From NCBI GenBank assembly GCA_031409855.1, contig JANNYA010000141.1:6906-70905 (forward strand): 64,000 nt of DNA. Reading direction: 5' to 3'. Shown in pieces: positions 11,172-59,200 of this stretch; the first letter of the stretch is position 1; every line of letters starts with the position of its first letter. A program made the translations under genes and the position numbers. Origin of the DNA: Rhodanobacteraceae bacterium. GTDB lineage: Bacteria; Pseudomonadota; Gammaproteobacteria; Xanthomonadales; SZUA-5. The notes beneath the pieces are model-generated. The model was not told the origin of the DNA. It saw only the letters and a program-made list of their open reading frames with translations, and searched no databases.

Positions 11172-11191
11172 CGGATTAGCGCGCTAATCCG
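11172..11191. other. Perfect 20-bp palindrome cggattagcg/cgctaatccg between convergent genes
   Basis: Read directly from the sequence. It overlaps the stop codon of the 261-aa ORF. No U-tract on either strand, so it is not a canonical terminator. Confidence 0.4.
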
Positions 11192-11969
11192 AAAACTGAT
11201 GCGTGACTGTAGGCACGCTCGGGCCGGGGCATACCGAGGTGTAGCCTGACGCATGCTGCACCCCAAATGCTGGCAAATTGCAGTAGCGGACCGGCGAATC
11301 CAAGCCAATCAGGGCGCTACCTAAATAAAATTCTGCCGCAGCGGAACTGCCAAACCGATTGTAGAATTGAAAATTGTGGCATGCGCCAGCGCCTCTACGC
11401 GCACATACCTGAATCCGAATACTGCCGCGAGCTCCAAATTGATTGTCGCTATTTACACGCGTATCTAGCTCTAATGCCGCTGGTGACGAAAAATCTGAAG
11501 GTAATAGGGTACGGGTGTCATAAGTCGAAAATCTTACACCGTCCACCGAATAGTGATGCGAAGCGGTTAAGGTGTGTCCCGTTTCTAAATTGCCAATAAC
11601 GGTGAGCAAAACTTCACTCTGGTCGTCGCGTAGTTTTGTGTAATAACGTTGATGATTCGGCATTAAGGAAAGGGGGGAGATCTCATAATCCTCGGTTGCG
11701 GCGATACGCGCAAAGATCGCGGTTTTGCCATATAGCGGACTTAATGTTGTGCGAAAACCCTGACTGGTCAAAACTGAGGGCAAGTGTTGAATTAGGAATT
11801 CGCGTTGACCTTGATTAGTTCCGGCATTCATTTCGTCCGGTTTTGTGCAGGATTGCAGAATCGCATTCTGGGCAACTTGGTACACCCGGACGGCTGCGGA
11901 TGTCCAATCACAAACGTCGCCACTGTTCAAAGCTAAAAATGAACTCGTTAGGACCGCTGAAACCAGCAT
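11184..11969 (-). CDS. Hypothetical Cys-containing protein (no recognisable domain), last gene of the ECF-kinase operon
   Basis: 261-aa ORF with an AGGA RBS, 48 bp downstream of the kinase gene on the same strand. Visibly AT-richer than its neighbours. Hydrophobic N-terminus. Confidence 0.55.
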   Translation of the reverse strand: MLVSAVLTSSFLALNSGDVCDWTSAAVRVYQVAQNAILQSCTKPDEMNAGTNQGQREFLIQHLPSVLTSQGFRTTLSPLYGKTAIFARIAATEDYEISPLSLMPNHQRYYTKLRDDQSEVLLTVIGNLETGHTLTASHHYSVDGVRFSTYDTRTLLPSDFSSPAALELDTRVNSDNQFGARGSIRIQVCARRGAGACHNFQFYNRFGSSAAAEFYLGSALIGLDSPVRYCNLPAFGVQHASGYTSVCPGPSVPTVTHQFSD

Positions 11970-15912: not shown

Positions 15913-18900
15913 ATGCGTATTAATTTGGCTAGATCAACGAAATTGTCTAGGCTTTTTGCCATCGGCCTTTTTCTAATTACCGCCCTAGGCTTCACGCATG
16001 GTGCGTTTGCGCAGCAGACTTTCACTAAAGCATTAATCGGTTCGGCGGGCCCTTATCAAACCGGGCAGAGCGTTACTTATCGCTTGCAGGGTTCGTGCAA
16101 TAACTTAATTACCGGGTGCGGCGCGCTGTCCATCACTGACACTTTGCCTGCGGGCTTGGTGCTTGGCGCATGTCCGACCTCAAGTTTCTTCGGCGGCGCG
16201 AACGGCTCAATCGTTTGCGGTGCAGGTACGATCACCTTAAATCGCAACGTGTATGCCGGTGGCGATTCTTACTCGATTGATGTGATTGTTCGGGTTGATC
16301 CAAGCATCACCGTTGCCACCAGCGGCATCGTCAACACGGCGACCGCGACGATTGCCGGGCCCATTAATACGCCGTCATCTGCCGCTCCGATTTCAGTCGC
16401 CGCGCCGACACCGCAATATCAGGTGCGCAAACAGCGCATTGACCCGAATACCGGTTTAGCCATTGCGCCGGGCACGGCGGTTACTTATCGGGTGCAGCTG
16501 TGTTCGTTGACCGGCACGGGCAATATGCCGATCAATAGCGCGACCTTGACGGATACCTTGCCGTCCACGACGCCTGCGCTGAGTGCTGCGAGCGTGGAAG
16601 TATTGGGTGGCGGTACTTTGGCGTTTCCCGATATTAGCTGGGTTATTCCAGCCGGCGATTTGACCACGCTGCATACCGGTACCGGCTGCGTCAGTCGCTC
16701 GTTTGTGGTGCGCTACCCGGCTGGCATCGCTATTGGCTCTGTAGTAACGAACACGATTAATGGCACGGTCACGCCGGTTGCGGGCGCAGCGCCAGTTTTG
16801 GGCGTCGGTACGCGTGTTGACACCATTGGTGCGCCAGTGCCCGCAGGTACTTCCAGTAAATCCGCGCCCGATGTCGCCCCCGGTACCGGTGATATCGTTT
16901 TTAGTATCAACGCGAATACCAATGGCGCAAATACGCGCGTCCCCAGCTTTGAAGTGGTGGATCGCCTGCCGGCAATACCCTTGGCGACCGGCCTGACCTT
17001 TGCTTCAGTTAGCAGCGGGCAGTGGAATTCCCCCACCGAAGGCAGCGTCACCAGCGACGTGCGCGCCACTATTCAATACACCACCGCCGCCGTGATGGCG
17101 GGCGTTTGCGATTTCACTATTGGCGTGCCCATTGCGACCAACATGGTCAGCCCAGGCGTGGCCGCCGTCTTTGCCGTGCCAGGCGTCATTCCAGCAAACG
17201 CCACCTGCATACGGTGGCAGTTTAGCGATGCGGGTGCTGGCGGCCCGAATACGCCGCGCAATTGGGCCTTCACGACCGCGCCGCAAGTGCGCTACAGCGT
17301 CAATGCGGCAACCGTGGTGCCACCGGGCACGGTGCAAAACTGCACCAACACCACCTTCACGGGCGCAGCCACGCCGCGTCCAGAGCAGTGTGTGAATGCG
17401 CGCGTTGAGCTTGCAACACCTTCGGTTGCGCCTGCGAAAAGCTTCAACCCAGCGACGACGTCACCCGGTGGCACGTTGGATATCACCATGAGCGCGAGCC
17501 ACGTCGCAAATGATTCCACTGCGCCATTGACCGGCATTATTTTGTCCGATTGGCTGCCGGTGCAGTTGGAGTTCGTTAGCTTTATTAGCTCCACCCCAGG
17601 TGGACAAGTGCTGCAAGTGACGCCGAACTTTGGCAGCACCGGCCGCACTTTGGTACGCGTGAGCTATCCGGCGCTATCCGTGCCGATCGGCAATGCCGGG
17701 CCGTCTGCCACTTTCCGGGTGCGCGTGCGTGAAGGCGTGTTGAGCAATCCAGCCTATGTCAATGATATGGCGGTGTTTATTGCGCCAGGGTCGTCAGGCG
17801 CATTTACTTGCCCGAACAACACACCGCCAATCGTGGATGTGAATGATCTGAACAATGACGGCAGCGCCACCGACTTACGCTGCTCAACAACCGCCAATTT
17901 TGCCGTCACTGATGCGTTTGTGTTGGGCGGGGAAAAATGGATTGAAGGCGATACAACTTTGCCAAATGTGGACGACCCAATTTTGGCGCCGATTGTTGCC
18001 GACAACACCAACTGCCCAGATTACGACAGCAATTTCGGTGGCCCAGCGTCGAACTTCACGCGTCTACCCTGCGTTGCGCAAACCCCGCACGGCGGCGCGT
18101 TCCGCTATAAATTGCGCCTGGCAAATGCGGGTAATCGTTTGCTGGAAGAATATGTCGCTTATGACACGATTCCTTTCATTGGCGATGTCGGTGTGGGTCA
18201 GCCTTTGTCCACCCAGCAGCGCGAAACCCGTTGGGTGCCAACGCTTGATGGCCCGATTACAGCTGCTGTGGTGGTGCCGCCGTTGATTCAGATTTTGTAT
18301 GCGCCGGGCACCTTCACAACGTATGCCGCTGACGCGCGCGTACAAGTGGAATACACGACCGATGGCAATTTCTGCCGCGGTGAAGTGCGAACCACCGATT
18401 TCGCACCCGCAGCCGTCGGCACACCGGCATTGATCAATTCCTATCCCGCAGGTTGCAACACCGCAGCGGTGTTTTCCACGACCGCACCGACGCCGATCAG
18501 CCTGACGCGCGGTTTCCGCATTCGTGCGTTCTCAACGTTGACGGCACCCGCCAGCACCATTGATTGGGTGCCTGGCACCTATATTGAGGTGAATATGCCG
18601 CTGCGCGCACCGGCTGTGGGTGCACCGCCCAGTTATGTCGGCGGCATCGCACCCAATGTTATTGCCAACGCTGGATTTTATAACCCCGCGTGGAACAGCT
18701 TCGCGCACCGCGTGTTCCGCGCTGCTGCTGTGGCAAATACCGATCTATTGCCAACCGCCGAGCCACCGAAAGTAGGCATCGTGTTGCCTGAGCGCTATCG
18801 TTTGGGTAACTTGGTGTGGTTGGACAATGGCGCTGGCAACGCGAGTTTGCGTAACAACGGCCTAGCCGATGTCAACGAGCCAGGAATCAATGGCGTCAAT

Positions 18901-21900
18901 GTGCGTCTGTGTCGCGATACCGATGGCACTGCGGGTGCTTCGGCGGGCGATACCGTGGTCGGCAACGTGCTGACCGCAACGCTTGGCGCTGAGCTGGGTA
19001 AATATCAATTCAACGATTTGGTACCTGCTGCTAACTATTATTTGGCGATCACCGATGCCGCGAATCAAGCGGTACTGAGCGGAATACGTTCCACTCTATT
19101 TGATGAGTTATTGCCGAATACCGATGCTGATAATACCGATAACGGCATAGGCATCAATGGCGCAGGCTTAGTTACGGCCTGCGGCGCGGGCGCGACCGGC
19201 TCGATCGTTTCCGGCTTAGTCACGTTGGGGCCAGTGAGTGCCACCGCAGTGGCACCAGAACCTACAAACGAAGTGCTACGAATTGGTGGTGTGGATGATG
19301 ATGCAGATGTGTTGTTCTTCGATCCAGCCTCAAACTTCAGCGTCGACTTTGGCTTTATTGAGCAAACTGATTTAGGCGACTTGCCTGACGCTGCAGCGGG
19401 AGTGGGCGCGGGCAATTATCAAACCTTGTTGGCAGATGGTGGTGCGGTACACCCAATATTAAACGCCACGCGTTTGGGCGCGACGGTGGACGCCGAACTC
19501 AATGGGCAACCGAACGTTGCCGCTGATTTGGATGACACGACCGGTGTGCCGGACGATGAAAATGGTGTTGCAGTGGCTGATTTGACTCAGTTTGAAACCA
19601 TCGCCGCACCGGTCGCTGTGACTTATACCGCAGCCAATGCGAGCCGAATTTGCGGCTTTATTGACTACAACAACGACGGCGCTTTCACCGGTGTTGAATT
19701 GGCACAGGCGGATGTTTTAGCCGGTGCCAGCACCGTAACGTTGAACTTTGGCCCTGTGCCCGCAGCAAGTGCAGGCAATCGCTATGCGCGTTTCCGCATT
19801 AGTTCCGGTGCAGCGGCCTGTTTGGCGTCCGGCTCAGCACTCGATGGCGAAGTCGAAGATTATGTCGTGCAAGTATTTAATGCCGCAGATTTTGGTGATT
19901 TACCGGATACCGCAGTCGGCAACTCGACCGGTAACTACAACACCACGCGCCTAGACAATGGTGCTGGGCACGTGCTGCGCGATGGCTTGCGTATGGGTGC
20001 TTGTAATGATGCGGAAACGAATGGTCAGCCATTGATCGGCGCGAATGGTGATGACACCGCCGCAGGTGTAATCACACAAGGTACCTGTGCACTAGCGAAC
20101 GACGACGAAGATGGCATCAATATCGCTGATTTGATCACCAACGTCGGCAACCCGGCAGTGGTGCGCGTCACCGCCACCAATACGGTTGGCGTGCCCGCGC
20201 AAATTTGCGGCTTCTATGACTTCAACGCCGATGGCGATTTTGCTGACGCAGGTGAATTGGCCGCCGCCGTGCCGGTGCCGACCGGCAGCAATGGTGTGGT
20301 GTTCAACGTTAGCTTTGGCACCGTGCCGGTAACCGCCGCGCCGAGCAGCTATGCGCGCTTTCGTTTGTCCTCAACAATTGCCGCGTGTGCGCCAACGGGG
20401 TTGTTGACCGACGGTGAAGTCGAAGACTATGTCGCAGGCTTAAATATTGTTGATCGCGGCGATTTGCCGGACACCGGCCCAGGTGTTGGCATCGGTAACT
20501 ACCGCACTTTGATTGCGGACGGCGGCGCATCGCATCCAATCATCAGCACCTTGTTCATGGGCGCGGTTAATGACGGTGAAGCCGATGGTCAACCGAATGC
20601 AACCGCCGCCGGTGATGATGTTGCGGGCGTCGATGATGAAGACGGCGTGGACGTATCGACGCTGCAGTTTATTGTCGGCCAGCCGCGCACGGTGGCAGTG
20701 CGCGCCACCAACACCAGCGGCGCTGATGCGCGCTTGTGCGGCTTTGTCGATTTCAACGGTGACGGTCAGTTTGCTGTAGGCACTGAAACGGCCTCGGCTA
20801 CGGTGCCGACCGGCAGCAACAACGCGTTGTTTAATCTGGCTTACACCAAGCCGCTGAACTCGCCTTCCGGGAACACCTACGCACGCTTCCGCCTAAGTTC
20901 CGACGTGGCGGGTGCTTGCGCCGATGCCGGCCCTGCCAGCAACGGTGAAGTCGAAGATTATGTCGCCGGTTTGCGCCGCATTGACTTGGGTGATTTGCCT
21001 GATACCGCAGCAGGTACTGCAGCCGTGAACTACAACACGCTGGTATCTGACAACGGTGCGCAGCACGATATCGTCACCGGTTTGTTCATGGGGGTGTTGG
21101 TTGACAACGAAGCCGACGGTCAACCGAATGCCACCGCCGATGGCGATGACACCACCGGCACTACCGATGACGAAGACGGCATCAACGCGGCAGATTTAAC
21201 GATTAACGTTGGTAACACCGCAACCGTGCGTGCCACCGCGACCAATACCACGGGCGGCGCTGCGCAAATATGTGGCTTTGTCGACTTCAATGCCGATGGC
21301 GATTTCTTGGATGTGGGTGAAAGTGCACCGGCGGTATCGGTGCCGACCGGCAGCACGGGCGTCGTATTCCCGCTCAGCTTTGGCTCGGTGGCACCGACAG
21401 CGGCGACGGTTAGCTATGCCCGGTTCCGCATTTCCAACACCATCGCGGCTTGCTCATCCTTGGGCGCTTTGGCAACCGGCGAAGTGGAAGATTACCGCGT
21501 CACGCTCAACAGTTCAGATCGCGGCGATTTGCCGGATACCGGTGCTGGCGTGGGCGTGGGCAATTACCGCACCCTGCTTGCCGATGGCGGTCCATCACAT
21601 CCGATCGTGACGGGTTTGCGCATGGGCACATTGAATGACGGCGAAGGCGATGGCCAGCAAGATGCCGCCGCCAACGGCGATGACGCAGCAGGCGTGGATG
21701 ACGAAGACGGCGTCGACATTACGACATTGCAATTCATTGTCGGGCAACCGAGAGTGGTCAATGTCACCGCGACCAATACCACCGCAAGCGCCGCACGAAT
21801 CTGTGCCTTCATTGACTTCAACCGCGATGGCGCGTTTACGCCTGGCACTGAAGTTCAAGAAGTAGCTGTGCCCGCCGCAAGTAATAACGTCGTGTTCGCG

Positions 21901-24102
21901 TTGAACTTTACCAAGCCGCTGAGTTCACCCTCGGGCAATACCTACGCGCGCTTCCGTTTGAGTACGGATATCGCTGGTGCCTGTGCTGATGGCGGTGTCG
22001 CGACGAACGGTGAAGTCGAAGACTACGTTGCTGGTTTGCGCCGCATCGACTTGGGCGATTTGCCTGATACCGGCGCCGGGGTTGGTGTCGGGAACTACAG
22101 CACTTTGGTGGCCAATTTGGGTGCGCAACACGATATCGTGCCGGGTTTGTTTATGGGCGCATCGGTTGACAATGAAGCGGATGGTCAACCGAACGCGACT
22201 GCCTTAGGCGATGACAGTACCGGCATTCCTGACGACGAAGATGGCGTCAATATTGCTGATTTGACCAATGTGCAAGCGTTGGCGGTCACCAATGTGCGCG
22301 TCACGGCAACGAATACAACAACAGCGGCAGCGAAAATTTGCGGCTTTGTTGATTTCAACGCCGATGGTGACTTCCTTGACGTCGGTGAAAGTGCGACGCA
22401 AGCGGTACCCGTGGCAAGCAACAATGCCGTCGTTACCCTAGCTTTTGGTGCAGTCGTACCGAGCGGTCCACGTAGCTCTTACGCACGCTATCGCATCAGT
22501 ACGTCTACCGCTGCCTGCAGCGCAGACGGCGCGCTGGTGGATGGCGAAGTCGAAGATTATGTCGTCAGCTTCCAAGAATATGACTTTGGCGATTTGCCAG
22601 ACGCAGCAGCGGGCACAGGCATCGGCAATTATCAAACCCTGTTTGGCGACAATGGCGCGGCGCACGGCATTATTGCGGGCCTGCGTATCGGTGCGGTGGA
22701 AGACGCTGAACTCGTCGGCCAACCGAATATTGCCGCGACCGGTGATGACAATGTCGGCACCCCCGATGATGAAGACGGTGTCACTGTGCGGCCGCAATAT
22801 TTCGCGGGCAGCCCAAGCACCACGCCAGCAGTCGTGACCAACACGACCGGCCGAGCCGCAACGTTATGTGGATTTATCGACTGGAACGGTGATGGCGACT
22901 TTGGCGATGCCAATGAAGCCGCGACCTTAGCTGTTCCGACCGCTAGCACCAATGTGTCGCTGTTACTTAATTTTGGCGTCGTGCCGGTGGGTGGCGCGGG
23001 TTCGACCTATGGCCGCTTCCGCTTATCGACGGTGCCGGGCTGTGTGGCCGGTGGTTTAGTGGCGGACGGTGAAGTCGAGGATTACGCGATCTCAGTCGGC
23101 ATCGGCGCGATGAGCTTGGGTAATTTGGTTTGGGAAGATTTGAACAACAATGGTGTGGTCAACGCAGGCGAGCCGGGCATTGTTGGCGTGCCGGTGAACT
23201 TGTTCATTGACGCTGATAACAATGGTGTGCCAGATGGTGCGGCGATTCAAACGCAAAACACCAATGGTACGGGCAACTATTTGTTCATCAATCTGCGTCC
23301 AAATACCTATCTGGTAGAAATCACGCCACCGGTGCAGTACACCGTTTCGACCGGTACCGGGCGTCGGTATTTGCCGCTTGGGCCGTATGAGCCTGCACCG
23401 GATCCTGATAACGATCTCAATAATGACGACAACGGCACCATCAATGCAGTCGTAAACTATCGTTCCTTTCCGGTGACTCTAGTCGCAAAAAGCGAGCCGA
23501 TTGATGACGGTGACAGTGATTTTGATTCCAATCTGAGTGTCGACTTTGGTTTGTTGACTAACTTCGATTTGGCTTTGCGTAAAACCTTGGCGGTGGGCCA
23601 ACCGGTGAATGTTTCCGGTGGCAATGTGCGCTTCACCATCACTGTGTTTAATCAGGGCTCCATTACTGCGGCCAATATTCAAGTGACCGACACCATTCCA
23701 AGTGGTTTGGCACTAAATGATCCGACGTGGACAATGGTGGGCGCAAATCAAGCGCGCCGCACGATTGCCGGGCCGCTGGCGCCTGGCGCGAGTATTCAGC
23801 TAGACATCGTGATGAGTGTTAACGGCTCGTCGGGATTGCTTATCAATACCGCCGAAATTTCAGAGGCTACGGACGGCGCAGGTAACCCACGAATCGACAA
23901 GGATTCCGATCCCGACGGTAATCCTGGTAACGATGGCAATCCGATTGATGATGAAACCGGCAATGGTGGCAACGATGAAGATGACGCGGATTTTGCCCAA
24001 GTCGTCATAAACATTGCCGTCCCCGCACTAAGCCCGTTTGCATTAATGCTGCTAATGCTTGGCATGGTTTGGATGAGCCGTCGGCGTATAGGCGCTGCCT
24101 GA
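15913..24102 (+). CDS. Giant secreted surface/adhesin-like protein: DUF11-like repeats, SdrD-B-like domains, seven GEVED-type repeats, IPTL-CTERM-like tail
   Basis: 2729 aa. Signal peptide ...FLITALGFTHGAFAQQ. Two LGNLVW.D.N.NG....EPG..GV.V.L domains (nt about 18790-19060 and 23110-23340). Seven ...GEVEDY units. DLALRKT...V.F.ITV.N.G...A..I.V.D.IP (DUF11-like). C-terminus IAVPALSPFALMLLMLGMVWMSRRRIGAA. Confidence 0.85.
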   Translation: MRINLARSTKLSRLFAIGLFLITALGFTHGAFAQQTFTKALIGSAGPYQTGQSVTYRLQGSCNNLITGCGALSITDTLPAGLVLGACPTSSFFGGANGSIVCGAGTITLNRNVYAGGDSYSIDVIVRVDPSITVATSGIVNTATATIAGPINTPSSAAPISVAAPTPQYQVRKQRIDPNTGLAIAPGTAVTYRVQLCSLTGTGNMPINSATLTDTLPSTTPALSAASVEVLGGGTLAFPDISWVIPAGDLTTLHTGTGCVSRSFVVRYPAGIAIGSVVTNTINGTVTPVAGAAPVLGVGTRVDTIGAPVPAGTSSKSAPDVAPGTGDIVFSINANTNGANTRVPSFEVVDRLPAIPLATGLTFASVSSGQWNSPTEGSVTSDVRATIQYTTAAVMAGVCDFTIGVPIATNMVSPGVAAVFAVPGVIPANATCIRWQFSDAGAGGPNTPRNWAFTTAPQVRYSVNAATVVPPGTVQNCTNTTFTGAATPRPEQCVNARVELATPSVAPAKSFNPATTSPGGTLDITMSASHVANDSTAPLTGIILSDWLPVQLEFVSFISSTPGGQVLQVTPNFGSTGRTLVRVSYPALSVPIGNAGPSATFRVRVREGVLSNPAYVNDMAVFIAPGSSGAFTCPNNTPPIVDVNDLNNDGSATDLRCSTTANFAVTDAFVLGGEKWIEGDTTLPNVDDPILAPIVADNTNCPDYDSNFGGPASNFTRLPCVAQTPHGGAFRYKLRLANAGNRLLEEYVAYDTIPFIGDVGVGQPLSTQQRETRWVPTLDGPITAAVVVPPLIQILYAPGTFTTYAADARVQVEYTTDGNFCRGEVRTTDFAPAAVGTPALINSYPAGCNTAAVFSTTAPTPISLTRGFRIRAFSTLTAPASTIDWVPGTYIEVNMPLRAPAVGAPPSYVGGIAPNVIANAGFYNPAWNSFAHRVFRAAAVANTDLLPTAEPPKVGIVLPERYRLGNLVWLDNGAGNASLRNNGLADVNEPGINGVNVRLCRDTDGTAGASAGDTVVGNVLTATLGAELGKYQFNDLVPAANYYLAITDAANQAVLSGIRSTLFDELLPNTDADNTDNGIGINGAGLVTACGAGATGSIVSGLVTLGPVSATAVAPEPTNEVLRIGGVDDDADVLFFDPASNFSVDFGFIEQTDLGDLPDAAAGVGAGNYQTLLADGGAVHPILNATRLGATVDAELNGQPNVAADLDDTTGVPDDENGVAVADLTQFETIAAPVAVTYTAANASRICGFIDYNNDGAFTGVELAQADVLAGASTVTLNFGPVPAASAGNRYARFRISSGAAACLASGSALDGEVEDYVVQVFNAADFGDLPDTAVGNSTGNYNTTRLDNGAGHVLRDGLRMGACNDAETNGQPLIGANGDDTAAGVITQGTCALANDDEDGINIADLITNVGNPAVVRVTATNTVGVPAQICGFYDFNADGDFADAGELAAAVPVPTGSNGVVFNVSFGTVPVTAAPSSYARFRLSSTIAACAPTGLLTDGEVEDYVAGLNIVDRGDLPDTGPGVGIGNYRTLIADGGASHPIISTLFMGAVNDGEADGQPNATAAGDDVAGVDDEDGVDVSTLQFIVGQPRTVAVRATNTSGADARLCGFVDFNGDGQFAVGTETASATVPTGSNNALFNLAYTKPLNSPSGNTYARFRLSSDVAGACADAGPASNGEVEDYVAGLRRIDLGDLPDTAAGTAAVNYNTLVSDNGAQHDIVTGLFMGVLVDNEADGQPNATADGDDTTGTTDDEDGINAADLTINVGNTATVRATATNTTGGAAQICGFVDFNADGDFLDVGESAPAVSVPTGSTGVVFPLSFGSVAPTAATVSYARFRISNTIAACSSLGALATGEVEDYRVTLNSSDRGDLPDTGAGVGVGNYRTLLADGGPSHPIVTGLRMGTLNDGEGDGQQDAAANGDDAAGVDDEDGVDITTLQFIVGQPRVVNVTATNTTASAARICAFIDFNRDGAFTPGTEVQEVAVPAASNNVVFALNFTKPLSSPSGNTYARFRLSTDIAGACADGGVATNGEVEDYVAGLRRIDLGDLPDTGAGVGVGNYSTLVANLGAQHDIVPGLFMGASVDNEADGQPNATALGDDSTGIPDDEDGVNIADLTNVQALAVTNVRVTATNTTTAAAKICGFVDFNADGDFLDVGESATQAVPVASNNAVVTLAFGAVVPSGPRSSYARYRISTSTAACSADGALVDGEVEDYVVSFQEYDFGDLPDAAAGTGIGNYQTLFGDNGAAHGIIAGLRIGAVEDAELVGQPNIAATGDDNVGTPDDEDGVTVRPQYFAGSPSTTPAVVTNTTGRAATLCGFIDWNGDGDFGDANEAATLAVPTASTNVSLLLNFGVVPVGGAGSTYGRFRLSTVPGCVAGGLVADGEVEDYAISVGIGAMSLGNLVWEDLNNNGVVNAGEPGIVGVPVNLFIDADNNGVPDGAAIQTQNTNGTGNYLFINLRPNTYLVEITPPVQYTVSTGTGRRYLPLGPYEPAPDPDNDLNNDDNGTINAVVNYRSFPVTLVAKSEPIDDGDSDFDSNLSVDFGLLTNFDLALRKTLAVGQPVNVSGGNVRFTITVFNQGSITAANIQVTDTIPSGLALNDPTWTMVGANQARRTIAGPLAPGASIQLDIVMSVNGSSGLLINTAEISEATDGAGNPRIDKDSDPDGNPGNDGNPIDDETGNGGNDEDDADFAQVVINIAVPALSPFALMLLMLGMVWMSRRRIGAA
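19369..23085 (+). repeat. Intragenic tandem array of 7 units (504-564 bp, 168-188 aa), each starting D(L/F/R)GDLPD and ending GEVEDY; units 3+4 and 5+6 form a 1065-bp higher-order repeat
   Basis: Unit starts read at 19369, 19888, 20452, 20983, 21517, 22048 and 22582. Block 20452-21516 is colinear with block 21517-22581. Confidence 0.85.
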
Positions 24103-51961: not shown

Positions 51962-54337
51962 ATGAGCAACCCTTATATTCTTTGGTTAGAGCAACTTCGC
52001 TTGAGCGATTTGCCGCAAGTGGGCGGAAAAAATGCGTCCTTGGGCGAAATGATCGGCAATTTATCGGCGCTTGGTGTTTCCGTGCCGGGCGGATTCGCCA
52101 CCACCGCCAGCGGCTTTCGTGAGTTTGTTGAATTCAATCAAATCAAAGAACGCATTTACGCGCGCTTGGCGGCGCTGAATATCGATGATGTCAACGCCCT
52201 GGTCGCCGCTGGCGCAGAAATTCGCGGCTGGGTGCACGCGGCGCAGTTTCCGGCGGCTTTTGAGGCCGAAATTCGCCGTGCTTATGCGCAATTAGAGCTG
52301 AAAACGGGCTTGGCAAACCCCGCCGTCGCGGTGCGCTCCTCAGCGACTGCAGAAGATTTGCCGGACGCGTCATTCGCGGGTCAACAAGAAACCTTTTTAA
52401 ACGTGACCGGCGCCGATTCGGTGTTGGCGCGGATCAAGGAAGTTTTCGCCTCGCTTTATAATGACCGCGCGATTAGCTATCGCGTGCATCATGGTTTTAA
52501 GCACGAAGATGTATTTTTGTCAGCCGGTATCCAGCAAATGGTGCGCTCAGATTTAGCCACCTCGGGCGTGGCGTTTACGCTGGATACCGAATCGGGCTTT
52601 ACCGATGTGGTGTTTATTACCGCGAGCTATGGTTTGGGCGAAATGGTGGTGCAGGGCGCGGTAAACCCTGACGAATATATTGTCTACAAACCGGCGCTGC
52701 GCGCGGCTAAACGTGCGCTGATTCGTCGGGTTTTAGGCAGCAAGCAAACGCGCATGGTGTATTCGGATAAACCCGGCGAGCGCGTGCGGGTCGAGCCGGT
52801 GCCGCTCGCCGATCAGAATCAGTTTTGTATGACCGAGGTGGAATGCGCGGAATTGGCGCGCCAAGCGCTGACGATTGAGCAGCATTACGGCCGCCCAATG
52901 GACATCGAATGGGCTAAAGATGGCTTGAGCGGCAAGCTTTACATCGTGCAGGCGCGGCCAGAAACGGTGAAATCGCGGCAGAATGCCACCGAAGTTGAGA
53001 AATTTCACCTGCGCGAAAAAGGTGAGCTATTGGTGCAGGGCAGGGCGATTGGGCAAAAAATTGGTGCGGGCCCGGCGCGTGTGGTCAAAGGCACGGCACA
53101 AATGGATTTGGTGCAGGCGGGCGATGTGTTGGTAACGGATATGACCGACCCAGATTGGGAACCGGTGATGAAACGCGCCTCGGCGATCGTGACCAATCGC
53201 GGTGGCCGCACCTGCCACGCCGCGATCATTGCGCGCGAATTGGGTATTCCGGCGATTGTGGGCTGTGGCGACGCGACGTTAAAAATCGCAGCGGGCGCGC
53301 AGGTCACAGTGTCATGCGCGGAGGGCGATACTGGCAATGTCTATGCGGGCGCACTAAAATTTGAGCGCCTGACCGCGAATTTGGGTGATATGCCACCGGC
53401 ACCTCTCAAAATTATGATGAACGTCGCACACCCAGAGCGCGCGTTTGAGTTCGGCCAGCTGCCCAATGCCGGTGTCGGTTTGGCGCGCCTGGAGATGATT
53501 ATCAACAGCCACATTGGCGTACACCCGAAAGCGCTGCTGGAATATGATCAGCAAGACGCAGTCGTCAAAGCGCAGATTGATGCGCGCATCCAGGGCTATG
53601 CCAGCCCGGTCGATTTTTATGTGGATCGCTTGGCCGAAGGCATGGCAATGATCGCTGCAGCATTTGCGCCGAACCCGGTGATCGTGCGTCTAAGCGATTT
53701 TAAGAGCAATGAATACGCCGAACTGATTGGCGGCAAACGCTACGAGCCAGAAGAACACAATCCCATGATCGGTTTTAGAGGCGCATCGCGCTATGTCGAC
53801 AATCGCTTTAAAGACTGTTTCGCGCTGGAATGCCGCGCGATGAAACGCGTGCGCGAAGAAATGGGCTTGACCAATGTCTGGGCAATGATTCCGTTTGTGC
53901 GCACCGTTGGCGAAGCCGAAAAAGTGATCGAAACCTTGGCCGAATTTGGCCTCAAGCGCGGCGAACAGGGCTTGAAAGTCATCATGATGTGCGAAGTGCC
54001 GAGCAACGCGATTTTGGCGGAAGAATTTTTAGCCCACTTCGACGGCTTTTCCATTGGCAGCAATGATTTAACCCAACTTACCCTCGGCCTGGACCGCGAT
54101 TCCGATATCGTCGCCCACCTGTTTGATGAGCGCGACCCAGCGGTCAAAAAACTGCTGTCGATGGCGATTAGTGCGGCTAAGAAAATGGGCAAATACATCG
54201 GCATCTGCGGCCAAGGGCCGTCCGATCACCCGGATTTGGCGCAGTGGCTATTGGCGCAAGGTATCGAAAGTATTTCCTTGACGCCCGATACCGTGGTGGA
54301 GACTTGGTTGCTGTTGGCGCGCTCGAAAGCGGCGTAA
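51962..54337 (+). CDS. ppsA: Phosphoenolpyruvate synthase
   Basis: 791 aa. [13 protein letters not shown]-grasp N-terminus, phosphohistidine motif [25 protein letters not shown]-terminal PEP-utilising domain. Confidence 0.95.
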
Positions 54338-54363
54338 ACTTCTCGACTAGGCGAGAGAAAATT

Positions 54364-55572
54364 ATGATAAAAAAATTGTTTGTTGATGGCTACAAGACCC
54401 TCGTCGATTTCACATTTGAGCCTGAGAGAGTGACATTACTCGCTGGTGGGAATGGTGCTGGAAAGTCCAGCGTGTTCGAGGTGATTGATTCCCTGCGGCG
54501 GTTTATCGTTTTTGGTGAAAAGGTTTCAGAAATTTTTCCAGCAAGCGTATTTACTCGCACGCAGCTGTTTTTGAATAGAGCATCTGAACAATTTGGAATT
54601 ACCCTCAACAGCTACGGCCCATGCCTTGAGTTGCGCATAGAAATTGGAGTTGTACTAAATCATGCACATTACAAATACGACTTGTTGTTGCACCGAAAAA
54701 TTTACGGGCAGACGGAACTACTTGCTGAAAAACTGAGCGTTGCGAATATCGCTGACCCTGATTCCGCTGTTGTGTTGTGCAACTTTGAAACCTCGCCGAG
54801 TGAACACGGTGGAACAAACGTCCAAGGTGAAAATAAACTCCAGACCGTCTTCGATGTCGCGGGCAATCTGAAAGCATCAATTCCTTCTGGGAGGGCGCGC
54901 TCTTTTCTGTCGGAGCTTCAGGAGAATGACTGGTCTTTACCGCACATCGTTTTTCGCGAAGCACTTAAGCGCACCGCCATACTCAAACCAGATGTCACGC
55001 GCATGGTCGGTGTGTCGCAAGCAGAAAGTGAGTGGCTAAAGCGGGATTGCAGCAATTTTGCAGATTGGTATCGCGGTTGGGTTGCTCGCTTCCCTGAACG
55101 TGCGCACCAGATGTCGCAACTTTTAAAATCAGCCATGCCTGGATTCAATGAGCTTCGAGTTTTGCCAGCGGGTGAACATCGACTACTGCAAGTAGAGTTC
55201 AATCACAGTGATAATTTGCTAAGTGAGTTTAGGCTTGAAGAGTTATCGGAAGGCCAGCGCATGATGATCTTACTTGCCGCATTGGCGCAGTCGAAAGAGT
55301 TTGACGTGCTTTTGTTGGATGAGCCAGACAATTTTGTTGCACCGGGCGAAGTTGGGCCGTTTCTCAACGCGCTGGTCAGTGATTTTGAAGGTTCAGCATC
55401 GCAAAAACAGCTGATCGTTATTTCGCATCATCCGCGTTCTATCGATCGGCTTGCAAGTTGGAGCGCTATTTTGTTTTCAGTTCGTGCAGGTCTCACTCAA
55501 ATCGCTCTCCTGAAAGATATTGATCTTGACGGTGTGCCTTTATCGGAAGCGATGCTTGATCAAGTGGTTTGA
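54364..55572 (+). CDS. ABC/SMC-type (AAA_21/AAA_15-like) ATPase, candidate defence-system NTPase
   Basis: 402 aa from the ATG at 54364 (GAGAG RBS). The track's 54244 start would overlap ppsA. Walker A GGNGAGKSS (54445-54471), signature-like LSEGQR (55243-55260), Walker B VLLLDE (55306-55323), H-loop-like VISHH. AT-richer than the flanks. Confidence 0.75.
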   Translation: MIKKLFVDGYKTLVDFTFEPERVTLLAGGNGAGKSSVFEVIDSLRRFIVFGEKVSEIFPASVFTRTQLFLNRASEQFGITLNSYGPCLELRIEIGVVLNHAHYKYDLLLHRKIYGQTELLAEKLSVANIADPDSAVVLCNFETSPSEHGGTNVQGENKLQTVFDVAGNLKASIPSGRARSFLSELQENDWSLPHIVFREALKRTAILKPDVTRMVGVSQAESEWLKRDCSNFADWYRGWVARFPERAHQMSQLLKSAMPGFNELRVLPAGEHRLLQVEFNHSDNLLSEFRLEELSEGQRMMILLAALAQSKEFDVLLLDEPDNFVAPGEVGPFLNALVSDFEGSASQKQLIVISHHPRSIDRLASWSAILFSVRAGLTQIALLKDIDLDGVPLSEAMLDQVV

Positions 55573-55611
55573 GTCCGTTTTTCAGCCTTCGGCTCGGGAG
55601 TCTGCCCCACC

Positions 55612-56142
55612 GTGATAGATCGTGTTTACTTGCTTTGTGAAGATCAATTGCATGAGCGGTTTTTGCGTCAGTGGTTGGCGCATAGGAAAGTTAAGGTTGT
55701 GAACGCCGAAGTTGCCCCTGCTGGCAAGAATTCCGCGTCCGCGTTCGTGCGAAAGCAATTTTTAGCTTTTGTCGTAAAGGCGAAGTCGAAGGCGTACCAA
55801 GAAAAGCTCGGATTTATAGTGGTTATTGATGGCGACAACCTGGGGGTTCGGCGCAAATTGGAGCTGCAAAAACAGTTAAATGATGCTGAGCTCATGCTTG
55901 CGTATGAAAAACGTGTTGTTATTTTGGTACCCAGTTGGTCCATAGATACCTGGATCGATGCGATATGCGGAGCGGACGCAGTTGAATCCACCAAGGTCAC
56001 GGATCAAATTAAACGCAGTATTGACGACGAAATGATCCGTCGTGCGACCCTCGACTTTGACTCGTATCGTCGGGCCTTACCCGCACATTTGCCGGCAATG
56101 TTGGACGCGCAGCTTGAGCTTAGAAAACTTGATTTGGCTTGA
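55612..56142 (+). CDS. Small TOPRIM-like protein (E...DxD; RloB/DUF4276/DUF4435-like pattern), putative effector partner of the ATPase
   Basis: 176 aa, GTG start with GGGAG 11 nt upstream. VYLLCED (E10/D11, nt 55639-55644), IVVIDGDN (D73/D75, nt 55828-55836), then VILVPSWSIDTWI. 39 bp downstream of the ATPase gene. Confidence 0.6.
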   Translation: MIDRVYLLCEDQLHERFLRQWLAHRKVKVVNAEVAPAGKNSASAFVRKQFLAFVVKAKSKAYQEKLGFIVVIDGDNLGVRRKLELQKQLNDAELMLAYEKRVVILVPSWSIDTWIDAICGADAVESTKVTDQIKRSIDDEMIRRATLDFDSYRRALPAHLPAMLDAQLELRKLDLA

Positions 56143-56281
56143 ATTAGTGCGAAAATTATCCACTAAGGCCGGTTTAAAACGATCACCTGGACTTGGCGCA
56201 ATGGCCTGCGGCAAGTGCCGTAGAGTGCCCAGAACGCGGCGGGCATGCTATGGTTAGTTTGCCCAAACTCACCCAAATCCA

Positions 56282-59200
56282 ATGCTCAGTGCACCGCACA
56301 TGAATCTGGCTGGTTTTACGATTCGAAATGTCATTTATGCGGTCGATGAAACCATCGTGGCGCGGGCTGACACGCAGCGTGGCGAGCGGGTGGTGCTGAA
56401 GTATCAAGACACGCACCGCCCGGCCCCTGAGCTACTGGCGCGCTGGCGTCATGAACACGCGATCCTCAGCTCAATTGACTCGAAATGGGTGATCAAGACG
56501 CTTGGGCTGAAGCAGTTCGAGCGCAATTTAGTGTTGGTGCTGGAAGATTTTGGCTCGACCAATCTTGCGCAGCTGATCGCGCAGCAGCCGCTTGATTTAG
56601 CCGAGCGGCTCGCCATTGCGATCCAGTTTGCTTCAGCGCTGGCGGATGTGCACGCGCATGGCTTAATTCATGGCGATATCGCGCCGAAAAATGTGCTGGT
56701 CGAAGTGTCGACGATGCGGGTAAAACTCTGCGATTTCGGGCTTTCAAGCCGCTTGGATCACGAGCAAAAGCTTGGCTATGACAATTTTTTGCGCGGCACT
56801 TTGGAATATATGTCGCCTGAGCAAACCGGGCGTACCAACCTGGATGTGGATTACCGCAGCGATCTTTATTCGCTCGGAATTAGCCTGTACGAGCTGTTTT
56901 CGGGGCGCAAGCCGTTCCACTCGAACGACCCGATGACGCTGCTGCACGCGCAGATCGCCATCATGCCAGTGCCGCTGCACCGGCTTGATCCGTTGATTCC
57001 GGAGCCGATTTCTGAGCTGGTGCAAAAGCTACTGGCAAAGTCCCCAGACGAGCGCTATCAAAGCAGTTTTGGGCTGATTCGAGATTTAACGCAGTGCAAC
57101 CAGCAATGGCAGCGCGGTCAGCGTATTGCGCCGTTTGCATTGGCGCAGGCCGACGTGCCCGAGCGATTTTGCATCGCACAAAAACTTTATGGTCGTGGTT
57201 CCGAAAGCGCGCTGATTTTGGCGGCGTTTGAGCGGGTAACGGCGGGCCACGCGGAGCTGCTGTTGATCAGTGGCTACTCAGGTATTGGCAAGAGTGCGCT
57301 GGTCAGTGAGCTGCATCAGCCGATTATTGCTGAGCGCGGCTATTTGATTCGCGGTAAATGTGATCAGTATTCGCGTAACCAGCCCTATTCGGCGCTGATT
57401 CAGGCGTTTCAACAGCTGGTGCGGCAATTGGCTACCGAGGGCGAAGAGCGGCGTGGCTATTGGAAAGCAGAATTAAGCGCCTGTTTGGGTGAGCACGCAG
57501 GCGCTGTGGTTGAAATTATTCCGAACTTGGCGCTACTCATTGGTACGCCTGCCGCATTGGCCCCCTTACCAGCGGCGGAAAAAGAGAACCGCTTTCACAT
57601 CGCATTTGCCCAGTTTGTCAAAGCCCTTGCAAGTAGCAGCCACCCGTTGTTGCTGTTTTTGGATGATTTGCAGTGGGCTGATGCGCCAACGCTCAAGTTG
57701 TTACAACACATACTTCAGGACGGCAGCGAGCGTTGTGTGTTGATCGTGGGTGCTTTTCGCGACAATGAAGTCGACGAAACGCATGGTTTAAGCCTGTGTA
57801 TCGCCGCCATTGAGCGCGCAAACGGCCGGGTAGAGCGGCTGCAATTGCGCAATTTAGAGCCCGCCCATGTTGCCAGCTTGGTGGCGGATACGCTGCATTG
57901 CAGTGAAGCTACCGTAGCGCCCTTGGCGGCACTGTGCTTTGAGAAGACGCGGGGTAACCCGTTTTTTCTGGGGCAACTGTTGCGCATGCTGCATGAACAG
58001 GGTGATATCCACTACCAGCGTTCTGAGGGGGTTTGGCACTGGAATATCGAGCATATTCGCCAGCGCGGTATCACCGAAAACGTAGTGGAATTAATGTTGG
58101 ATAAGGTGCGCTTACTGGCACCGTTGACGCAAAAATTCCTAGCGTCGGCGGCACACCTAGGCGGCAGCTTTGATATGCGCCAGCTCATGGCGGTGTGCGC
58201 GCAAGACGCCGTGACTGCTGCGGCGGTGCTTTGGCCTGCGCTGCAGAGCGGGCTGGTGTTGCCGCTCAATGAGCAATACAAATTTTCCGATAGCCCAGAG
58301 CAGTTAGAACAGGCGCGCTATCGCTTCTTGCATGATCGTGTGCAGCAAGCGGCTTACCAACTTACTCCGGCAAGCGAGCTTCAAGATTTGCAGTTGCGTT
58401 GCGGACGTTTGTTGCTCGCTGCCAGCTCCAGCCTAGAGCAGGATGAGCGCTTGTTTATCATTTTGCACGCCTTAAACAGCGCAGTGGCGCTGATTGACGA
58501 TCCGGCTGAACGTGCGCAGCTTTTGGCGCTGAATTTGCGCGCCGGTATGAAGGCGAAATCGGCCTCGGCATTCCCGACGGCGGTGAGCTTATTGCGCCAA
58601 GCTAAGGCGCTGCTTGTGCTCGATGCGTGGATGCAGCAGCCGGATGAGTGTTTGGTGCTGTATTGCGAACTGGCTGAGGCTGAGTATCTTTCCGGCAATT
58701 TCGAGCAGGCAGAGGCGCTGTACCCTGAAGGCATTGCTGCCAGCGATAGCGTGATCGCAAAAGTAACGCTGTGCTTAGTGCAGGTCGATCAATATCATAT
58801 TCAGGGGCGCTTTGCGGATTCGTACCCGGTACTGAATTTTGCGCTCGAACTTTTGGGCGGCAGCTTTCCTGCAACGGAGGAACAAGCGGGATTCGCATTT
58901 GTCGAGGAATTTGCGCGCACTGAGGCGCTACTGGCGCAACAGGATAAGGCGCAGTTACTCAGTGCGCCGGAGATGACGCAGGCACAACATCTGCTGGAAA
59001 TGCGCATCTATTTTGGCCTGTCGTATTCAACCTATCAAACCGGGCGCTTTAACGCTTTTGTCGTTGACGCCTGCCGCATGGTGCAAGCCACGCTGCGCAA
59101 TGGTCAGGGGGATTTGAGCTGTATCGCTTACGTAGCCTATGTCACCGCGATGTCGGCGGCAAAGCGGCCATACGCCTTGTGTTTTGAGATGGGAAAGTTG

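Follow-up and report, generated by a model that had tools for sequence, protein, structure and literature searches.

Pairs of an ATP-binding cassette (ABC) ATPase and a TOPRIM-like protein have been catalogued in several bacterial immune contexts. In HEC-01, a PADLOC candidate system embedded in Hma, an ABC ATPase is encoded together with a TOPRIM-like partner (bioRxiv 10.1101/2024.01.29.577857), and OLD-type ABC ATPase and TOPRIM pairs that lie inside BREX have been described as its backup effectors (PMC12839542). The small partners HEC-01B, DUF4276/Mad4, RloB and AbiLii have been assigned to TOPRIM, with the same glutamate and DxD residues (bioRxiv 10.1101/2024.01.29.577857; PMC12065111; PMC13064643). 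Here we analysed a 64,000-nucleotide (nt) stretch of DNA from a Rhodanobacteraceae bacterium (contig JANNYA010000141.1, positions 6,906 to 70,905; hereafter the window), in which two + strand open reading frames (ORFs) are flanked by ppsA on one side and a giant kinase/GGDEF gene on the other. The two genes form an operon that was acquired horizontally, and they encode an ABC ATPase and a small stand-alone protein that is best read as TOPRIM-like. The pair does not belong to PARIS, AbiL, MADS, class 1 OLD or Gabija and is best regarded as a sister family of HEC-01, divergent and not covered by a model, within the ABC-ATPase and TOPRIM class. With a probability of roughly 0.6, we regard it as a defence pair of the PARIS type, in which the ATPase would gate a TOPRIM-like nuclease that aborts infection.

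An earlier note, made from the letters of the window alone, had described this cassette as a compact and possibly undescribed anti-phage module. The ORF positions, the protein lengths in amino acids (aa), the two short spacers and the motifs that it quoted were all recovered in our reanalysis, which gave the following layout:

54338..54363, + strand: 26-nt spacer from the ppsA stop (54337) to the ATPase start, with the purine-rich GAGAGAAA just 5′ of the ATG
54364..55572, + strand: 402-aa ABC ATPase of the AAA_21 type, ATG start, TGA stop
55573..55611, + strand: 39-nt spacer from the ATPase to the small gene, with GGGAG at 55596-55600, 11 nt before the GTG
55612..56142, + strand: 176-aa stand-alone TOPRIM-like protein, GTG start, TGA stop
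56143..56281, + strand: 139-nt spacer from the small gene to the kinase/GGDEF gene, without a terminator-like site

The first of these spacers contains no terminator- or promoter-like site on the + strand, and no terminator-like site was found on that strand anywhere in 53900-56600; read-through from the cassette into the kinase/GGDEF gene is therefore possible. A repeat search found no meaningful repeats flanking the cassette, in line with the note, and the locus yielded neither a tRNA gene nor an Rfam match. The insertion is not marked by a repeat, nor by any mobility gene. The AT-richness remarked on in the note is borne out by the composition of the cassette, which has a GC content of 0.479 against a window mean of 0.547 (s.d. 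0.024) and falls at the 0.2nd percentile among equally long sliding windows; no other stretch of its length in the window is as AT-rich as the two genes together. The GC content at third codon positions (GC3) of the ATPase gene, 0.459, is the lowest among 32 long ORFs. An independent assembly (L165) matches window positions 54309-56392 at 99.7% identity with both junctions included, which shows that the cassette is not a misassembly. This compositional deviation, together with the differing flanks of the nearest relatives of the cassette described below, supports its horizontal acquisition.

The upstream gene encodes an ABC ATPase of the AAA_21 type with a Rad50/SMC-head fold. Walker A (G28-S35, GGNGAGKSS, with K34), the signature (L293-R299, LSEGQR), the Walker B/D-loop (V315-N323, VLLLDEPD, with the catalytic E320) and the H-loop (H355, VISHH) follow one another in the expected series. 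When the ATPase is aligned with seven homologs, none of these ABC motif residues varies, and the N termini of the homologs also back the ATG start. The AAA_21 layout proposed in the note holds: PF13304 is matched with 50.5 bits against a cutoff of 27 (E 4e-13), and the PADLOC matches are headed by mad3 (2e-18), HEC-01A (1e-17), AbiLi (1e-15) and AriA (2e-14), with PDC-M25A/M07A, GajA and PtuA among the further ones. Within HEC-01A, model PDLC04184 is reached at E 1.3e-17 and PDLC04178 at E 5.7e-17, the latter aligning ATPase residues 2-383 with positions 9-356 of 399. The top NCBIfam match, MADS3 (NF047739), scores 38 bits, far below its cutoff of 420. In the AlphaFold (AF2) model (predicted local distance difference test score (pLDDT) 85, predicted template modelling score (pTM) 0.86), the ABC head is matched by Foldseek to Rad50/SMC heads (E 1e-13, TMq ~0.5), with retron/Septu PtuA and OLD 6p74 lower in the list, and a PDB sequence profile search gave a similarly generic picture. 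Residues ~89-174, between Walker A and the signature, are predicted to form β strands and no coiled coil. The insert region also carries two lineage-specific insertions of low pLDDT, at residues ~66-84 and 140-160, that are extra relative to the closest homolog (P0008, 358 aa). In related systems, the insert region of such ATPases is thought to set trigger specificity.

The small protein of the window has no match in Pfam or NCBIfam, with DUF4276 absent even at E ≤ 1, and its sole PADLOC match is the HEC-01B model PDLC04196 (E 1.2e-3). A word-indexed search with it returned only five relatives. Exhaustive profile searching returned 858 clusters (50% identity) at E ≤ 1e-3, 238 of them at E ≤ 1e-10, and an indexed search with the family profile returned 1149 clusters at 90% identity; nearly all of the latter are named 'hypothetical protein' and lack a Pfam domain, and Cyanobacteria, Chloroflexi and Planctomycetes contribute many of them. 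The members are nearly all 140-206 aa long and stand-alone. In an alignment of 127 members, D73, D75, P107 and W114 are invariant, and E10, D11, G40, R81, E/D112, T113, E125 and E169 are at least 90% conserved, E10 being invariant in the 21 closest relatives. The acidic residues that the note had singled out in VYLLCED (E10) and IVVIDGDN (D73/D75), ahead of its third motif PSWSIDTWI, are thus conserved across the family.

An AF2 model built on the family alignment is very confident (pLDDT 96.4, pTM 0.91) and has the order β1(4-9)-α-β2(28-34)-α-β3(66-71)-α-α-β4(102-105)-α, followed by a helical C-terminal tail (residues 131-173). As a succession of secondary-structure elements, this would fit TOPRIM, whose four-stranded parallel sheet (order 2-1-3-4) is sandwiched by helices. 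In the model, E10/D11 lie after β1 and D73-G-D75 after β3, and β4 is followed by P107-SWSI-D112-T113-W114, which corresponds to the family motif P-x-W-S-I-[ED]-T-W. Remote similarities of the family run to TOPRIM-assigned proteins. At E < 0.01, 17 of the 18 Pfam matches among the 127 members are to DUF3226, DUF4276 or RloB, and DUF4276 (PF14103) is matched by 8 members (best 4e-4); one member each reaches RloB (2.6e-3) and AbiLii (9.7e-3). Against PADLOC, the five commonest HEC-01B models attract 20, 18, 16, 13 and 10 members and mad4 attracts nine; the other matches are to PDC-M38B/M31B/M25B and AbiLii and, apart from a lone match to Orf5, all PADLOC matches are to B components of ATPase-partnered systems. 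The family consensus aligns with HEC-01B colinearly from β1 to β4 (residues 7-111 on positions 2-102 of 204, E 2.4e-7), and consensus sequences also reach mad4 (3e-5) and the GajA TOPRIM region (7e-3); in the Pfam scan their only match is DUF3226 (4e-3), with none to DUF4276. Motifs, predicted topology and transitive remote homology together make TOPRIM-like the best reading of the small protein.

The end of the small gene stands out in nucleotide comparisons. Between the window and the P0002-type cassette (L001:354-566 and L002:815-1027), with 67% protein identity overall, nucleotide identity of 83% is confined to the last 213 nt of the small gene (window 55930-56142), and the C-terminal 40 residues are almost identical. 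Two explanations suggest themselves: the helical tail is under strong constraint, or the gene is a recombination mosaic.

The association of the two genes extends across the family. Searching with a degenerate DNA pattern for PTWSIETW brought up 76 metagenome loci, 61 of which encode a family member, the other 15 being chance matches. Wherever at least 150 nt of upstream sequence was available, a related ATPase gene lies directly upstream on the same strand (55/55 loci; 49/49 when identical ones are set aside), so that the synteny on which the earlier note had hinged its proposal is present and the two-gene association goes beyond chance. Independent gene calls place overlaps of 8-14 nt between the two genes, and ATPases only ~30% identical also have an overlapping 180-185-aa partner bearing all three motifs. 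The nearest relatives keep the pair amid different genes, with imelysin or di-haem oxidoreductase neighbours.

Some relatives lie in defence neighbourhoods. In L095:1633-13466, as also in L106 and L153 and similarly in L145, two modules are embedded in a type I BREX locus, in the interval from PglX to PglZ, giving the order PglX-[pair]-BrxU-like-PglZ-BrxL; the second module, after the pair, is a 723-aa protein matching HEC-05 (BrxU/GmrSD-like) models. Elsewhere the pair follows BrxB-BrxC (L131) or adjoins an upstream DruE-like helicase (L151), VapC/PIN toxins neighbour it in some loci, and in Scytonema hofmannii PCC 7110 (L170) the order is Uma2-[pair]-SACS-DarT-Macro. The Scytonema locus (L170:11718-20552) has, after the pair, a small opposite-strand ORF, an 855-aa SACS-family protein, a 1954-aa DarT-domain protein and a Macro-domain protein, which make up an unusually large DarTG-like arrangement. 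On the Dolichospermum plasmid pDol_DET69_01 (L168:8001-9309), a family-type ATPase 27% identical to that of the window is followed only by a 51-aa hypothetical ORF, in surroundings with VapC toxins, reverse transcriptases and an HNH gene; this plasmid ATPase may be a decayed copy. An amidase of ~600-611 aa found directly upstream of the pair in four loci (L094, L112, L115 and L126) was considered as a third component and rejected: it is absent from the window and travels with His_Phos_1 genes, and shared ancestry of related genomes is the probable reason for its recurrence.

Among named systems, HEC-01 is the closest to the window pair. The two share a two-gene architecture with an ATPase of ~360-400 aa and a partner of ~175-220 aa, and an ABC head with a β-sheet Insert 1 and without a coiled coil; HEC-01 is the best near-full-length PADLOC match of the window ATPase and the only match of the small protein, and some members of the present family are likewise embedded in methylation-based defence loci. 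Gene A thus matches HEC-01A over most of its length, whereas gene B has no confident HEC-01B match. The family ATPases reach HEC-01A at 1e-17 to 1e-26 (1e-20 to 1e-26 for the mainstream ones), which is no better than their matches to mad3, PDC-M25A, AbiLi and AriA; two mainstream small proteins (L095 and L151) have no PADLOC match at 1e-5; and the window copy is embedded neither in Hma nor in any defence locus. The HEC-01B models are 174-219 positions long, and the description of the small protein as unusually small in the earlier note does not stand.

Similarities to the other systems are partial. For MADS, mad3 is the top PADLOC match of the ATPase and the mad4 match of the small family is colinear over β1 to β4, but the ATPase stays far short of the MADS3 cutoff, the window small protein has no DUF4276 match, and the pair is flanked by ppsA and the kinase gene rather than by a methyltransferase or other MADS genes. 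PARIS offers the best mechanistic model: there the AriA ATPase sequesters the AriB nuclease until a trigger sets it free to cleave tRNA. The window ATPase matches AriA models at ~1e-14, yet the inserts of AriA are coiled coils from which a hexameric scaffold is built, whereas the insert of the window ATPase is β-rich, and AriB is a protein of ~35 kDa with a DUF4435 dimerisation region, while DUF4435/AriB is matched by none of the 127 family members. AbiL and RloA/RloB are also two-gene abortive-infection pairs of an ATPase and a small TOPRIM-like protein, and AbiLi is matched at 1e-15, but the B-component matches are marginal (E ~0.003-0.01) and the RloB-like fold match described below is non-significant. 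Class 1 OLD and GajA follow the same logic of an ABC ATPase combined with a TOPRIM domain, and the window ATPase matches OLD 6p74 and GajA models; in those proteins, however, both domains share one polypeptide, in contrast to the two separate genes of the window. In addition, no GajB-like helicase adjoins the window pair, and the resemblance between the small protein and the TOPRIM of OLD lacks statistical support. The suggestion in the note that the pair is possibly undescribed therefore stands for the family, which has no confident model, but not for the architecture: an ABC ATPase with a small stand-alone TOPRIM protein is already catalogued in HEC-01, Mad3/Mad4, AbiL and PARIS, and the novelty is at the family level only.

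Guided by PARIS (AriA/AriB), AbiL, Mad3/Mad4 of MADS and HEC-01, we infer complex formation, a trigger, nuclease activity, a nucleic-acid target and an anti-phage phenotype for the pair. It would consist of a translationally linked ABC ATPase and a stand-alone, ~180-aa TOPRIM-like, metal-dependent putative nuclease, which the ATPase would bind and keep inactive. An invasion signal, such as a phage protein or an anti-restriction factor, might be sensed through the variable insert of the ATPase and would alter its nucleotide state or assembly, so that the nuclease is freed or activated. The nuclease could then cut nucleic acid of the host or of the invader, be it tRNA or DNA, by means of an acidic site formed by E10/D73/D75 plus D112, and this cleavage would stop phage replication.

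Several results, on the fold of the small protein and on a role in defence, weigh against this explanation, and they bear on the alternatives to it. With respect to the fold, Foldseek searches with the small-protein model gave no match at E ≤ 1e-3 in the PDB (best E 8e-3), where the top matches are receiver/flavodoxin-like domains (KdpE, LuxO-type, CheY; probability 0.5-0.7, TM score ~0.3-0.45) and no OLD, GajA, AriB or RNase M5 chain is among the 50 matches listed. The viral BFVD likewise gave none at that threshold; its highest-probability match, an 'RloB-like protein' (0.96, E 2e-2, TMq 0.46), is non-significant, and a few topoisomerases are among the other BFVD matches. The family profile found no solved relative among PDB sequences, its hhalign comparison with phage P2 Old reached a probability of 0.6% against 4% for a CheY control, and the window protein itself reaches HEC-01B at a modest E value. 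The only hhalign alignment does land on the TOPRIM β1 motif of P2 Old (394 VLLVEG, in the segment 389-455 that Pfam assigns to OLD-like_TOPRIM); a phmmer search of the PDB with the P2 Old TOPRIM region found nothing. These results would suit a small protein that is a Mg2+-binding, receiver-like (CheY/flavodoxin-like) or non-catalytic regulator, or a pair that acts like RecF/RecR as a DNA-binding repair or housekeeping module: receivers also have acidic residues after β1 and β3 and a serine or threonine after β4, CheY scored no worse than P2 Old, and many family neighbourhoods are housekeeping. We consider this improbable, since the receiver-like structural matches are themselves all non-significant, the model has four strands rather than five and lacks the β5 lysine, no member or consensus matches Response_reg or RecR in Pfam, the matches instead converge on HEC-01B, Mad4, DUF4276, RloB, AbiLii and the GajA TOPRIM, and the partner ATPase groups with nuclease-paired ATPases. 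There is also a slim chance that the family is a non-TOPRIM α/β domain of a new kind, Mg2+-binding, receiver-like or otherwise enzymatically novel, which would explain the absence of a similar solved structure despite a model of pLDDT 96; if so, this strictly coupled ABC ATPase pair would bring a new effector chemistry to defence loci such as BREX. The TOPRIM reading of the earlier note is thus upheld by the E/DxD residues, the predicted succession of strands and helices and the remote profile links, but not by a significant match to any solved structure.

With respect to the role, the window copy and its closest relatives lie outside defence contexts, and most of 111 neighbouring proteins of family members are housekeeping, so that the expectation of a defence island is borne out for some relatives, in BREX or other defence neighbourhoods, and not for the window. 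The PTWSIETW pattern retrieved no viral contig, tblastn searches of plasmid records gave no match to the small protein, to the consensus of the family or to one of its cyanobacterial members, nor did a tblastn search of phage records with the consensus, and HEC-01 protected E. coli against none of the phages tested (bioRxiv 10.1101/2024.01.29.577857). A selfish addiction module, in which a nuclease toxin and an ATPase antitoxin maintain themselves after transfer without sensing phage, would account for a compositionally foreign cassette in unrelated chromosomal contexts, for the tight and often overlapping gene pair, for the VapC/PIN neighbours at some loci and for the lack of defence by HEC-01, and PARIS itself behaves as a type II toxin-antitoxin pair (PMC13064643). 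The absence of plasmid and phage copies from the searches counts against such a module, which would typically be enriched there, as does the embedding in BREX operons, the very pattern used to discover defence genes; the two roles are not mutually exclusive, and pure addiction appears to us possible though rather unlikely. A different dependence would arise if the pair were a backup effector, accessory to a methylation-based system (BREX, Hma or a MADS-like one) and working only alongside it, with the window copy an inactive orphan. The family members inside BREX operons, the inactivity of Hma-embedded HEC-01 when tested alone, the OLD-type modules described as BREX backups (PMC12839542) and the mad3 match of the ATPase fit this view. 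Most of the family loci examined, the window included, have no BREX, MADS or Hma genes nearby, however, and in the window both genes are intact with all motifs, which argues for autonomous function and makes an orphaned accessory hard to credit. An autonomous, PARIS-type defence pair remains the reading that we prefer.

The insertion site was compared across 80 genome loci anchored on the kinase gene, the 23 closest of which were inspected. The kinase gene is 87-90% identical to its counterpart in a Rhodanobacteraceae metagenome-assembled genome (MAG) and shares ~65-80% identity with the counterparts from other Lysobacterales MAGs in the set of closest loci. In none of the 23 does the kinase have ppsA, the cassette or the downstream peptidase close by, and because ppsA and the kinase are never neighbours there, no empty junction is definable. 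In the closest relative, a Rhodanobacteraceae MAG (L009:178-4165), adjacent ORF fragments directly upstream of the orthologous kinase gene resemble, to judge by eye from their translations, a broken restriction-type (ResIII-like) helicase gene, and after them come a SEC-C-motif protein of 381 aa, whose tail is acidic, and a protein of 269 aa without a Pfam match. The region upstream of the kinase may be a variable spot that gathers foreign or defence genes. Elsewhere in the window, a second compositional outlier at 11184-11969 (- strand) encodes a 261-aa ORF (GC 0.496, GC3 0.481) without a Pfam match and is possibly another horizontally acquired gene, and a very large ORF of 2729 aa occupies 15913-24102 (+ strand).

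The concept of an ABC ATPase coupled to a TOPRIM protein is already established by PARIS, AbiL, OLD, Gabija and HEC-01, and the gain from the present family is accordingly incremental. The family has no confident model in Pfam, NCBIfam or PADLOC v2, so that annotation with those libraries would miss the pair. If active, the pair would add a widespread family, of more than 1000 clusters at 90% identity, to the ABC-ATPase and TOPRIM immune modules. Being so compact, with an ATPase that lacks a coiled coil and a candidate nuclease of ~180 aa, it would then also serve as a tractable minimal model of how ABC ATPases gate TOPRIM effectors.

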